Notes under the pieces: model-generated
Told to the model about the DNA's origin: nothing
The model's database searches: none
The model's input: only the letters and a program-made list of their open reading frames with translations
Assembly (NCBI GenBank): GCA_964016885.1
Contig: OZ024751.1
Span: forward strand, 10,106,001-10,170,000
Direction: 5' to 3'
DNA from: Eledone cirrhosa
Lineage: Eukaryota
Length of the DNA stretch: 64,000 nt
Made by a program: the position numbers and the translations under genes
Shown: piece by piece, positions 19,713-62,695 of the stretch
Position numbering within the stretch: the first letter of the stretch is position 1
How the letters are laid out: the number at the start of each line of letters is the position of its first letter

Positions 19713-20042
19713 ATATGACAAAAGACCAAAGTTAACAACATAAACTGATTCTTTAATTTCTACGTCTGTTTCAATATGGTTACAATGTCACATGCATACA
19801 TAAACAATTGGAAACAATTATCAATTATTAACACCATACATAATACGTATAACTGCATTTCTTCAGGAAAATGTGAGAAACTTGGTAAACTTTGTTCTTT
19901 CTTACATTTTCCTGAAGAAATGCAGTTATACGTATTATGTATGGTGTTAATAATCGATAATTGTTTCCAGTTGTTTATATGCATGTGACATTGTAACTGT
20001 ATTGAAACAGACGTAGAAATTAACCTTGGTCTTTTGTCATAT
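19713..20042. mobile_element. Fold-back element P1 with a hammerhead motif in each arm
   Basis: Arms 19753-19880 and 19898-20023 are near-perfect reverse complements, with outer arms ATATGACAAAAGACCAA/TTGGTCTTTTGTCATAT. Confidence 0.85.
19908..20019 (+). ncRNA. Minimal type I hammerhead ribozyme motif (mirror copy on minus strand, 19757-19870)
   Basis: TTTC-CTGAAGA(19912-19918)-AATGCAGTTATA..TGTAACTGTATT-GAAA(20004-20007)-C AGAC-GTA-GAAA; stem II 12 bp with G-U pairs, stem I 4 bp. Confidence 0.75.
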
Positions 20043-20179
20043 CAAATATATATGTGGTGAGAGCTGATCTTAAATCGTTGAGATTCAGAAAAGAGATGAT
20101 GGAGAAACAGGGTAAGTGGAGAGATACTATGCTGAAAAGGACCCATCCACCCCATGCAAGTATGGAAAAATGGACATAA

Positions 20180-21255
20180 AAATGATGATGTCGAGGTCAG
20201 ATTTTCATCATTTTGGGGTTTATACAATAAAATACCAGTAAAGTACTAGGGTTGATTTAATCAACTTCCCCTACTCTATAATTGCTGGTTTTGTGCCTAG
20301 AACACAAACCACTATTATTATTATTATTATTATTATTATAAGGGCGGTTGATTGGCAGTATCGGTAGAGGGTCGGATGCCATGCTTTGCAGCAAAGAGTT
20401 ACGGTCCTTGCCATTCTGAGTTCAAATCCCGCTGAGGTTAGTTTTACTTTTCATCCTTACGGAGTCGATAAAATAAAGTACCAGTTATGCACTGGGAAGA
20501 ATTTAATTGACTTTCCCCTCTCCCTCAAAATTGTTGACCTTGTGCCTAAATCAGAACCCATTATTATTGCATTTCCAGTATCGGTAGAGCATCAGAAAAC
20601 AGGCTTTATGTCATAGAATTACAGCCCTTTATATTCTGAGTTCAAATCCTGCTGAGGTTAGCTTTACTTTTCATCCTTGCAGAGTCAATAAAATAAAGTA
20701 CCAGTCATGCACTGTGGTCAATTTAATCGACTTTCCCTTTCCCAAAAGATTGTTGGCCTTGTGCCTAAATCAGAAACCATTGGTGGATTGGCAGTATCAG
20801 TAATGGGTCGGACGCCATGCTTTGAAGCATAGAGTTACCTCCCTTTATGATCTGAGTTCAAATCCCGTCGAGGTTAACTTTGCCTTTCATCCTTATGGGG
20901 TCGATAAAATAAAGTACCAGTAATACACTGGGATAATTGCTGGGCTTGTGCCAGTGGATTGGCAGTATCGGTAGAGGGTCGGACACCATGCTTTCCAGCA
21001 TAGTTACGTCCCTTTACGATCTGAGTTCAAATCCCGCCGAGGTTGACTTTGCCTTTCATCCTTACGGGGTCGATAAAATAAAGTACCAGTAATGCACTGA
21101 GTAATTGCTGGCCTTGTGCCTAAAGTAGAAACAATTATTATTATTATTATTATTTAATGTACCAGTAATGCACTGGGGGTGAATTTAATCAACTTGCCCA
21201 TCTCCCCAAATTGCTGGCCTTGTGCCTAAATCAAAAACCATTATTATTATTATTG
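20180..21255 (+). mobile_element. Head-to-tail array of about 6 SINE family A copies
   Basis: Repeated GGATTGGCAGTATCGGTAGAG heads, GAGTTCAAATCCC B boxes and (ATT)n tails. Confidence 0.9.
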
Positions 21256-59111: not shown

Positions 59112-61932
59112 TAGGTATAGGATTATCCTAGATGTAGTAATGCTTTCGAACAAGATTTAATGAAAACTACCATGAACATTAAGTTTAACAAACATAGAAA
59201 TAATGAGCTGCAGAGCAACATGAAAGCACTACTCCGAAGACTGCAAAATACCAATGGAATTGTTGTGAAAGCTGACAAGACCTCTAACGTGTCTACCATG
59301 GATATCGATACGTACAATAACTTCATACGCAACGAACTACACAAAAAATAAAGAAAAACAAATGAAACTACGCTAGCAAATATTAATAACGAGGCATACA
59401 AAGTGGTGAAGAATCTCAAGATAGACGATTGAACCGAGCCGATTATACCCGCTACCCCCACCTTCAACCTGAAGGACCATAAGGTAAATTTTGACTCTAA
59501 CCCTAAGATTAGACTTATATGCCCTTCTAAATCAGACATAGGAAAAATTAGCAAACATATACTTGACAGAGTAATAACTCAAGTGAAAAAGAAAATTGAA
59601 ATTAAATTATGGGGCAACACTAGCGAAGCAATTCGCTGGTTTAATAACGTTAAGAATAAGAATAAATCTAAGTTTATACAATTTGACATAGACGAATACT
59701 ACTCTTCAATCTCACCAAGCACTTTACGTAAGGCCCTATCGTTTGCTAAAGTAAATTCCGACCTAACGGAGGACGAAATTAATATTATTCTCTAGGCTAG
59801 AAAAACTATTATCAAGTTTGATAACTGCTACTGGGAACGTAAGGACAGACCCACAAACTTCGACATTACCATGGGTTCCAACGACTCAGCGGAGGTCACG
59901 GATCTTGTGGGAATTTACATAGCCCACATAGTACATAGTAAATTTAGTAATCTACAGGGGGGGGGGTATACAGATATGACGGGCTCTTATTAGTTAATAA
60001 CTTGAATAACCAAAATCTTGAAAGGCTACGGGAAAATATTAGAAAATCTTTTAGTGAACTGGGTCTAAAAATAACATACGAATACAATCTTAAAGTAGTA
60101 AACTTTCTGGACGTAACTCTTAATTTAAATACCGGACAGATACGACCCTTCCATAAGATAAATGAGAACCTTACGTATATCAACTTTAACTCAAACCACC
60201 CACTCTCCATGATCAAATCGGTTCCCCGGAGTATTTCTCTTAGAATCTCTCGCCTATCGTCTAACTCTTATATTTTTAGTGAACACGCTGAATACTATAA
60301 TAATGCATTAAGGAATGCCGACCACCGGGATACAATAGAATACATTGATAGGAATCTCCATAACACACATAGCTCTACACGAAATCAAGGAATACGTAAC
60401 CGGGGGACTAAAATACAAGCGCGCACACACAGTACCACCAGACATACTAATAATAGAAAATCACCACCAAATAAATCACGTTGTAGAAAGTCTATCTGGT
60501 ATAATCCTATTTTTAATGCCTCGATTAGTACAAAACTATCTCTTTCATTCTTTAAGTTAATCAACAAACATTTCCCTAGTTCCCATAAGTACAGTAAAAT
60601 TCTGAACTCTAAAACTATTAGACTATCATACTCCACGGCACCAAACCTTGAAGCATACATAAAAAGCATATATGTTTAAAGCAATTAAACAACACTACAA
60701 AACGAAATATTTTGGTAACAGATGGGCAGAACGTAAAATCTGCCTCCCAACCACTAAATGGGAGACGGGTATTACACAACCCACCTGTACTGCTATCACA
60801 ACCTATCCATGGTATACCCGCTACCCACAACAAAGAATGTAACTGCCATCTACCTGAAAGATGTCCATTGAAGAATGAATGCCTAAAGTCCAACATTGTT
60901 TATCAATGCACGGTTGAATCGAACGACCAGAAATGGTATTATATCGGATCTACCACCACCTCGTTTAAATCTCGCTGGTGCCGTCATCGATTCTCAATCA
61001 AACATCCTGATCACCGTTTTGTGACCACGCTCGCCAACAAGACCTGGCAACTCCGTGAACGCAACCAACAGTTCACCTTAAAATGGGATATACTTTCCAG
61101 CGCAAGTGCATACCAGAGTGGATTGAAGTACTGTAGGTTGTGTAACCTTGAACTCTTTTACATATTAAAATCCAAAAACAAACTACTTAACGATAGAATC
61201 GAACGATCATTATACTGCAACCACAAACTAAAAGCTAAATTCTCTCACTATAAAATAACTTAACATTAGAACCCGTAACTATAACATCGCTTTCTAGCTC
61301 TCTTCCCCCACACTACAAGACAATACACTGCTTATCACTATAAATGGTAACTCAGTGCAATTCGCAGATTACTACTACGAACCCTAAGTTCACCCACCAC
61401 AGTCTTCGTCTGTCCCCTCCTATCTCTCTCTCTACATCCATTCCACTCTCTCTCTCTCTCTCTCTCTCTCTCTCTCTCTCTCTCTCTCGCCTTTGGCCTA
61501 CCTCCCTCCCTCTCCACATCTATGAACCTGCCCTCTGGGGCAATAAATAATTCCGACCTTGACTATCAACGCATCTCTCTAAAAGTAACCAGTATAATAA
61601 AACCCCTACCATAACATTTTGATTAAGATATCTACAAACCACTCTCTCCTATTTCTCCAACCCCTGCATATCTTTCTCTCTCTCTACCCTACTTTTCTCT
61701 CTTCCTTTTCTACTCTATCTTCTCCAATAACCCCACTTAAGGGTATTTACATTGTACATTTTAACCATTCTGCTCTGAGGATACAGTGGTCACAGCATTT
61801 GATATTTGAGTTCTGCAAATAGTTGTAAATTTGCACATAGCATAACTAGGCTGTATTACCACCGTGGAAACATTTGTAAGCACACGGAATAAATTAACTT
61901 TTTATGATGTCTACCTGTTATTATTCATTCTT
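59112..61932 (+). mobile_element. Naiad-type Penelope-like element, 5'-truncated pseudogene (RT, Cys-rich linker, GIY-YIG, 3' pLTR)
   Basis: KADKTSN, LKDHK, QFDIDEYYSSI, MGS, YRYDGL, VNFLDVTLNL, WYNP, linker CNCHLPERCPLKNEC (CxCx5Cx5C), NIVYQC..YIGST..FKSRW..H, CRLCNLE; several stops and frameshifts; TA-rich tracts on both sides. Confidence 0.93.
61771..61882 (+). ncRNA. Type I hammerhead ribozyme motif in the Penelope 3' pLTR
   Basis: TGCT-CTGAGGA(61775-61781)-TACAGTGGT..ACCACCGTG-GAAA(61867-61870)-CATTT-GTA-AGCA. Confidence 0.8.
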
Positions 61933-62201
61933 TATATATATACATATATACATATATACATACATATACATATACATATACATACATATACATATATATA
62001 CATATATCTACATATACATATATATACATATACATATATATACATATATATACATTTACATATATATACATATATATATATAGAGAGAGAGAATTTAGTA
62101 TATCTACTAACATATGCGTACAGATGTACGCTAATGCCAGCAAATACATAAGTTATGTCATAGTACCTAGGTGGTTCAATGCAGGAGGATGCAGAACAAT
62201 A

Positions 62202-62695
62202 ATATGAAGGACGTAAAATAAGAAAATTTAAAAAAAAGATTTAGTTAGTAGATATACTAAATTCTCTATATTTATCTCCAAATTATTTATTTGTTGAGCA
62301 AACCTGCCAAAACCACTCCTAATTCATCGGTGTGGTAGTAGGCTTCTGTCATCTTACCATCCCACTCCTTCCGACTAGCCTCAGTGTCACGTGATTGATT
62401 CTTTAGAATCTGCCATTTGACCAGAGACAGCGAGCTTTTCAGTGCATGGAATCCAGTCCCCGCTAGCTGTTCCATCTACCGAATTATTATTATTTTTATA
62501 CGAGTCCCCGGTGTCCGCGCATTGCCTGGAGACTTAGCTGAGAATAGACTCCCTGATGACGCAATGAATTCTCGACGGTTGTATTACGTAACTGCCTTTA
62601 TCCCATTGCAGAAACTAATTAGTTGGAGTGAAAATTTTAGTAAGTTAATTTTTTTAATCTTTTTTTTAAATTTTCTTATTTTACGTCCTTCATAT
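62202..62695. mobile_element. Element P5 with 40-bp inverted ends and one hammerhead, ending at (TA)n
   Basis: ATATGAAGGACGTAAAATAAGAAAATTTAAAAAAAAGATT (62202-62241) and its reverse complement (62656-62695). Confidence 0.8.
62548..62629 (+). ncRNA. Type I hammerhead ribozyme motif with palindromic stem III
   Basis: ACTCC-CTGATGA(62553-62559)-C GCAATG..CATTGC A-GAAA(62611-62614)-CTAATTA-GTT-GGAGT. Confidence 0.75.

Follow-up and report, generated by a model that had tools for sequence, protein, structure and literature searches.

We describe five short palindromes, P1 to P5, in a 64,000-nucleotide stretch of the Eledone cirrhosa genome (assembly GCA_964016885.1, contig OZ024751.1, positions 10,106,001 to 10,170,000, forward strand; hereafter the window). 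Each carries a hammerhead ribozyme motif, and an original prediction proposed them as a candidate family of fold-back elements without open reading frames (ORFs). No such family was borne out. Instead, we consider it highly probable that P2 to P4, and likely P1, are ends of Penelope-like elements (PLEs), that P5 is a piece of a retrozyme, and that a PLE enzyme primed twice at (TA)n targets, the products being joined head to head.

Results

The genome searched is ~3.0 Gb and rich in (TA)n. Copy counts come from the best 40 candidates of each genome query and are samples, not a census. Arm positions are numbered backward from the tail-less 3' end (site 1) of each family, except in P5, where they are numbered from the predicted hammerhead cut (+1). 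Whole-element queries for P2 and P3 are biased toward two-armed, one-tailed loci, and 5'-limit counts for P2, P3, and P4 were taken from queries placed away from the junction. Junction identity was scored by eye, as were the clade marks of the parents in translations, and P5 arm starts were compiled by hand, excluding seven loci that ranked through a match to the whole of P5; a second P5 query of the genome yielded just 4 additional loci.

The inverted duplications were confirmed, the arms of P1 to P4 being 76 to 95% identical, while the earlier boundaries stopped short of the P1 and P3 tails and missed P5's left arm. P1 (arms 90% identical over 278 nt) has a minus-strand arm at 19665 to 19879, with its core at 19866 and a tail fragment reaching to ~19665 that comprises the first ~45 nt of the family tail (19665 to 19712), and a tail-less inverted arm at 19878 to 20042 (+), with a 19-nt internal deletion, a CTGAAGA core at 19912 to 19918, and a predicted cut after 20015. 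In P2 (94% over 389 nt), (TA)n precedes a tail-less minus-strand arm at 36465 to 36659, whose core reads GACA instead of GAAA. The sense arm at 36664 to 36856 (+), a Hydra-type PLE 3' end, has a CTGATGA core at 36750 to 36756, a predicted cut after 36796, and the modal 5' limit of the family (the A of TCACT) at ~36684; a tail of 92 to 95 nt at 36857 to 36950 (+), present on the sense arm only, is followed by (TA)n. P3 (95% over 409 nt) begins with a 40-nt tail at 52652 to 52691 (-), which contains the earliest ATG in the reading frame downstream of the 5' pseudo-long terminal repeat (pseudo-LTR) in the full-length copy L192. Its tailed arm, a Poseidon-type PLE pseudo-LTR, lies at 52692 to 52903 (-), with a minimal core at 52839 (-) and a predicted cut at 52811/52810, and its tail-less inverted arm at 52904 to 53097 (+), with a CCGAAGA core at 52952 to 52958. 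P4 (76% over 288 nt) owes its low arm identity to a 29-nt deletion in the tail-less left arm at 54861 to 55008 (-), which takes out the CTGATGA half of the core; the sense arm with its ~90-nt tail at 55009 to 55208 (+) is a second Hydra-type PLE 3' end, with a core at 55018 to 55024 and a predicted cut after 55067. P5 spans 62088 to 62695. Its left arm, 62088 to 62243 (-), is retrozyme monomer positions 34 to 189 and ends at fixed site 2; its right arm, 62244 to 62695 (+), is monomer 166 to 546 and then 1 to 75, ends at fixed site 1, and has a CTGATGA core at 62553 to 62559 and a predicted cut after 62624. A supposed 40-bp terminal repeat is merely the overlap of these two longer arms. The five had also been thought mostly to share no sequence, which fails for P2 and P4, 74 to 79% identical over 68 to 109 nt.

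Their coding parents identify P2, P3, and P4, as far as sequence can, as the hammerhead-bearing 3' ends (pseudo-LTR plus tail) of autonomous PLEs. P2-family copies L199 to L201 are collinear for 1.5 kb upstream into an endonuclease and a reverse transcriptase (RT), and the P4-family copy L465 is collinear with an RT and an endonuclease showing DKT, CxCX5C, CxxC, and CxH. DKT and the CxCX5C linker are marks of the Hydra clade (PMC8557442). A set of Hydra marks (DKT, CxCX5C, a C-terminal endonuclease with CxxC and CxH, and a (TA)n target) is found in L465 and in a degenerate PLE of the window at 59112 to 61930 (+), with DKT, a CxCX5C linker, a C-terminal GIY-YIG domain, and a hammerhead at 61775; for the P2 parent, the assignment is based on a CxCX5C linker and on DNA that is 71% identical to that of L465. 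Judged by these marks, the parents of P2 and P4 are Hydra-type PLEs. In the P3 family, L192 and L195 are nearly full-length copies in which Pfam RVT_1 (E = 6.8e-14) is followed by GIY-YIG (E = 1.9e-5), and the parents L192, L194, L196, and L197 have DKG, a C-terminal GIY-YIG, and no CX2-5CxxC linker, which places the P3 parent by its translation in the Penelope/Poseidon type. At its own 5' end, L192 carries a palindrome of the P3 type, which was among the top matches to the P3 query and has a tail on both arms. The P1 family is old (82 to 88% identity), and its tail, inversion, and hammerhead fit a PLE end, so that P1 is probably another. The suggestion that these are solo inverted pseudo-LTRs from several PLE lineages thus survives for P2, P3, and P4, which have coding parents, and probably for P1, but not for P5. 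Mobilization by Naiad, also proposed, found no support, as every parent found has its RT before a C-terminal endonuclease. We rejected Naiad, which needs an N-terminal endonuclease, DKA, and no canonical hammerhead; Naiads are described as being without canonical hammerheads (PMC8557442).

A type I hammerhead motif (core, stems I and II, and palindromic stem III) was found in all five palindromes, as predicted, although it is weak in P3 and the left-arm cores of P2 and P4 are damaged. P1, P2, P4, and P5 satisfy the core CUGANGA...GAAA...UH with stems I and II; the P3 motif is the weakest, its stem I being 3 bp. The P3 family core is CCGAAGA in 82 of 95 copies read and CTGAAGA in 11, and CCG is the family state, while CpG decay may account for the minority CTG cores. 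A natural U4C hammerhead variant in a viroid retains sufficient activity (PMC3088659). Between the P2 and P4 types, 2 of the 7 stem II pairs are changed on both sides (two events, in six related sequences). A relaxed descriptor matches P1 to P5 and at most 1 of 500 dinucleotide shuffles of each element (0 to 1), and it finds eight matches in the window against none in 19 of 20 shuffled windows and one in the remaining one. The cores are commoner than in shuffles, the comparison that had been suggested, but this is partly circular since a strict first descriptor missed P1, P3, and P5 and was relaxed after the motifs had been seen. Rfam gave no hammerhead family at E ≤ 10 at P5, P2, or neighboring motifs, and across the wider window TA-repeat microRNA models dominated, with no hammerhead among the 150 of 215 matches listed. 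The same motif had been placed at the 3' ends of both ORF-bearing PLEs in the window, and cores do lie at 61775 (+) and 47828 (-), but in the latter a G occupies the cleavage position. This copy is one of two of the same hammerhead-bearing PLE 3' end, which lie on the minus strand at 46560 to 46700 and 47720 to 47850; the core of the other copy, at 46671 (-), is intact, unlike that at 47828. A transcript of the whole P2 palindrome is predicted to fold as one long duplex (-273 kcal/mol) in which the ribozyme is hidden, while the sense arm alone is predicted to form stems I and II. With its ribozyme hidden in the modeled fold-back RNA, the palindrome would be unlikely to be a functional ribozyme unit.

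The families share one insertion anatomy, in which two 5'-truncated arms lie head to head in (TA)n, one for each fixed 3' site. The outer ends were fixed and the tail one-armed in 20/20 P2 and 17/17 P3 palindromes from the whole-element queries; a tail-free query gave one 3' site per arm at 10/10 P3 loci. The inverted partners of P2 were tail-less in 19/20, and two-armed ORF-less stubs made up 21 of the 29 P2 samples. The same head-to-head join was seen with arms of 1.4 to 2.9 kb, and the window holds a PLE insertion with coding arms at 47720 to 49240, in which the endonuclease and 3' untranslated region are on the minus strand, the RT is on the plus strand, and the join is near 48330. Junctions carry short overlaps or small inserts and are mostly distinct (17 among 20 in P2, 15 among 17 in P3, and 23 among 25 in P4), which is what the original prediction had expected of one-off truncated insertions, but the arm 5' ends cluster and one pair seems to have been copied whole.

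The clustering is specific to each family. In P2, 14 of 29 arms start at -175 to -162 and one is longer; in P3, 32 of 88 start at -220 to -182 versus one at -259 to -221; and in P4, 25 of 29 lie within 186 nt, with none at 187 to 250. To the right of P2, inserted in (TA)n, lies a sixth hammerhead family at 36958 to 37134 (+), with its core at 36991 and a predicted cut after 37071; it is abundant, has a 5' limit at about -116, and is two-armed in 4 of 29 sampled copies. In this family, tested afterwards, 11 of 29 arms start at -117 to -114 of its cut. Compared with the initiator and TATA consensus sequences, the commonest arm start in P2, P4, and the sixth family is an A preceded by a C, and in P2 TATAAAA occurs at -32 relative to that start. 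The 5' pseudo-LTR of L192 begins at the P3 limit, and short and long P3 copies (21 versus 20) differ at none of 13 variable sites. Transcription of Drosophila virilis Penelope starts inside the upstream pseudo-LTR, from an internal promoter (PMC2377424), and the family-specific arm limit in the PLE families is likely to be such a transcription start. From the clustered limits we infer that the stubs arose as run-off complementary DNAs (cDNAs) whose synthesis began close to the 5' end of the RNA of the element itself.

P5 is different in kind. Its family is a non-coding 546-bp tandem monomer (37% GC, longest ATG-started frame of 62 codons) that holds a single hammerhead and is repeated up to ~6 times in an array. 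One type I hammerhead per short non-coding tandem unit is what defines a non-LTR retrozyme, the class to which P5 belongs on this definition by sequence. The proposal of a propagating nonautonomous ribozyme element holds for P5 only, and the propagating unit is the monomer of a known class, not the palindrome. Two opposed arrays occur at 32 of 49 P5-family loci, and in 32/32 other two-armed loci with both ends visible the arms end at ~+75 and ~+189/197 (one arm is 13 nt short). No RNA data set was listed as containing P5; P5-related sequence occurs in contigs of two organisms, in the second as short pieces only. Mobilization of P5 in trans is likely, a Hydra-type PLE being the most plausible agent. 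In L126, a P5-family copy and a close relative of the PLE at 59112 to 61930 (89% amino acid identity in the endonuclease) are 800 bp apart, a proximity that probably reflects their shared (TA)n target. A 310-bp tandem repeat, 99% identical across two contigs (L222:6156-8748 and L223:1-864), lies near two P5-family insertions.

Some P5 arms and, less firmly, some P3 arms also start at or near the predicted cut. At 42 P5 loci, 22 of 67 arm starts fall in +1 to +35, 21 in the hammerhead body (448 to 546), and 24 in the other 412 nt; for long arms only, the count is 11 in +1 to +35 versus 4 in +36 to +104 (p = 0.002), and both arms of L404 start exactly at +1. Among the 18 P3 arms that start within -181 to -109, 6 (at 4 loci, with both arms in two of them) do so at the cut, -119 to -117 (p = 0.003 by loci). 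These genomic positions suggest that hammerhead-cleaved RNAs are likely templates in P5 and possible ones in P3.

Other repeats in the window comprise two related long interspersed nuclear element (LINE) copies with an RT followed by a PHD finger, 84% identical, at 32533 to 34428 (+) and 39869 to 42400 (-), and a further LINE RT fragment at 43305 to 44888 (-). A transfer RNA-like match at 38528 to 38585 (-), below the Rfam cutoff (28.1 versus 29 bits), is possibly the head of a short interspersed nuclear element. Nested clusters of 100- to 400-bp repeats, in opposite orientations and 70 to 96% alike, occupy 20200 to 23400 and 26000 to 27100, and a degenerate tandem repeat with a unit of ~140 to 170 bp lies at 49574 to 50773.

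Discussion

In the course of events that we favor, a PLE enzyme would prime two cDNAs at a cut in (TA)n, each from one of two fixed start sites, and would run to the 5' end of a short or ribozyme-cut template RNA, after which the two cDNAs would be joined head to head into a palindrome. The arm 5' end would correspond to the pseudo-LTR transcription start in the PLE families and likely to the hammerhead cut in P5. We predict that the source RNA, not the fold-back, is where the ribozyme acts, and the palindrome would likely be a by-product and mostly a dead end. A bolder version, on which we are nearly evenly divided and lean slightly to doubt, is that the stubs are fossils of template RNAs, in which a dimeric PLE enzyme would prime at both sites within a single integration, the arm ends would mark the start or the cut, and a few palindromes would be recopied as units.

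Several observations weigh against these views. No ORF collinear with P1 was found among 22 upstream loci and 2 longer stretches. No autonomous partner was found for P5, whose monomer resembled none of the other retrieved loci outside its own family; P5 copies themselves fill the best 40 candidates of a genome query, so that no dedicated search was made. Upstream of the P3 and P4 limits there is no TATA box. The pile-up of arm starts at the cut is weak in P2 and P4 and failed out of sample in the sixth family, where 0 of 29 arms start at +1 to +5; as a general PLE rule, it was rejected on that result. In P5, positions 1 to 35 are AT rich (especially +10 to +35) and contain a small palindrome that might attract junctions, and the 21 starts inside the hammerhead are upstream of the cut. 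P3 has a second cluster at -148 to -142, where the first bases of the hammerhead core are the starting point of seven sampled arms and also of the 5' pseudo-LTR in L195. Finally, some junctions recur: three pairs among 20 in P2, one triplet among 17 in P3, two pairs among 25 in P4, and one pair in P5. L017 and L023 have in common a complex junction of 23 nt and 12 private letters, with different flanks. They lie 3 Mb apart on one contig with the junction flipped relative to the tail, and the center could have been inverted by arm recombination or heteroduplex repair. This pair is a real copying of a palindrome, through RNA or DNA. Segmental duplication of the junction-sharing pairs was rejected, since no in-register flank beyond simple or interspersed repeats was found within ~4.5 kb.

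It is unlikely that the mirror arm generally results from snap-back, in which the 3' end of a single cDNA primes itself. Self-priming has been argued for rotifer PLEs (PMC3846280), private variants can be common to both arms of a copy, and some junctions that lie at small internal palindromes (L067, L074, L233, L244, L220, and L269) form almost perfect hairpins, as snap-back would leave. However, at 6 of 10 P3 and 6 of 19 P2 loci it is the tail-less arm, not the tailed one, that extends further in the 5' direction, which is impossible from snap-back of one cDNA and calls for two, and one 3' site per arm is left unexplained. Snap-back may account for a symmetric minority of the palindromes.

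Self-propagation, in which the palindrome is transcribed with its junction and reinserted as a unit, seems to us very unlikely as the main route. It would fit the fixed outer ends and clustered inner limits, and the stubs could keep an internal promoter, as in D. virilis Penelope (PMC2377424). L017 and L023 are mutual nearest neighbors as well as sharing their junction, L222 and L223 share a junction and 8 non-majority letters, and the junction of P2 itself was found at one further locus (L002) among the 40 scored. Against this, most junctions are unique, clustered limits by themselves make simple junctions recur, and two of the three P2 pairs lie 3 to 5 Mb apart on one contig, which fits copying at the DNA level. 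Short P3 copies are no separate lineage from the long ones, and the fold-back RNA is predicted to bury the ribozyme. That the palindromes are miniature inverted-repeat transposable elements (MITEs) or fold-back DNA transposons with incidental hammerhead words is next to impossible and was rejected, for although they are short, non-coding, palindromic, and TA flanked, and each query drew hundreds to thousands of initial candidates, they have collinear PLE coding parents, a series of variable 5' truncations, and an asymmetric tail instead of symmetric fixed termini, P5 comes in tandem monomers, and two compensatory changes in stem II separate the P2 type from the P4 type.

The anatomy of P1 to P4 is already known. 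PLE insertions are described with an inverted 5'-truncated copy and a one-ended tail (PMC8557442; PMC3846280; PMC2377424), and ours agree in the head-to-head copy, the one-ended tail, the (TA)n target, the pseudo-LTR hammerhead, and, for P3, the ORF start in the tail. They differ from those accounts in the dominance of ORF-less two-armed stubs, the tails of 40, ~93, and ~115 nt, and the family-specific 5' limit of the arms. In Schistosoma, dual minimal hammerheads 100 to 700 bp apart on opposite strands have been ascribed to truncated PLEs (PMC4209133); the arrangement is the same here, and P3 has an unpaired base before G10.1-C11.1. Unlike those pairs as reported, the P3 family has a C3-C4-G5 core, and in P1, P2, P4, and P5 the loops of stem II are long and stem III is an 8- to 10-nt palindrome. 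Work on Poseidon PAc (Frangieh et al., PMC11167929) has shown that the RT starts at two sites, one on either side of the tail, and that both strands are cut, and has predicted a dimer. The two fixed start sites bounding a tail and the AT-rich target are alike, but in that account cleavage was dispensable in vitro, with no reads at the cut, whereas genomic P5 and P3 arms start at the predicted cut.

In twin priming of L1, two primings likewise give an inversion joined by microhomology, but its two halves derive from separate parts of the RNA, whereas a single 3' region is the source of both arms in our palindromes.

P5 adds a new member to the known retrozyme class. Like the non-LTR retrozymes (PMC7229834; bioRxiv 10.64898/2026.07.22.740005), it is a non-coding, low-GC tandem with one type I hammerhead per unit in dispersed arrays, but its unit of 546 bp compares with ~170 to 400 nt given in PMC7229834. 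It also differs from the retrozymes described in these sources in that it mostly occurs as two opposed arrays bearing the two-site signature of PLEs, and its circular RNA is putative. In the open literature searched, subscription papers and supplements aside, we came across no description of retrozyme arrays that carry this inverted signature, and none in which arm ends mark a transcription start or cut.

The origin of inverted PLE pseudo-LTRs, hammerhead cutting in vivo, and the mobilizer of animal retrozymes are open questions in the accessible text of PMC8557442, PMC11167929, PMC7229834, and the 2026 preprint. The PLE insertion signature on P5 gives structural support to a link between retrozymes and PLEs that has so far been argued from co-occurrence and sequence relatedness. 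For annotation, such palindromes are PLE ends or retrozymes, not MITEs, and the abundant young stubs yield predictions at the level of single bases for each family: two start sites, a transcription start, and a cut site. If the bolder version is true, the stubs would be genomic evidence that the hammerheads of a 546-bp retrozyme and of P3, with its C4 core, cleave in the germ line, and retrozymes would integrate via PLE twin priming, with multiunit arms coming from circular or uncut RNA.

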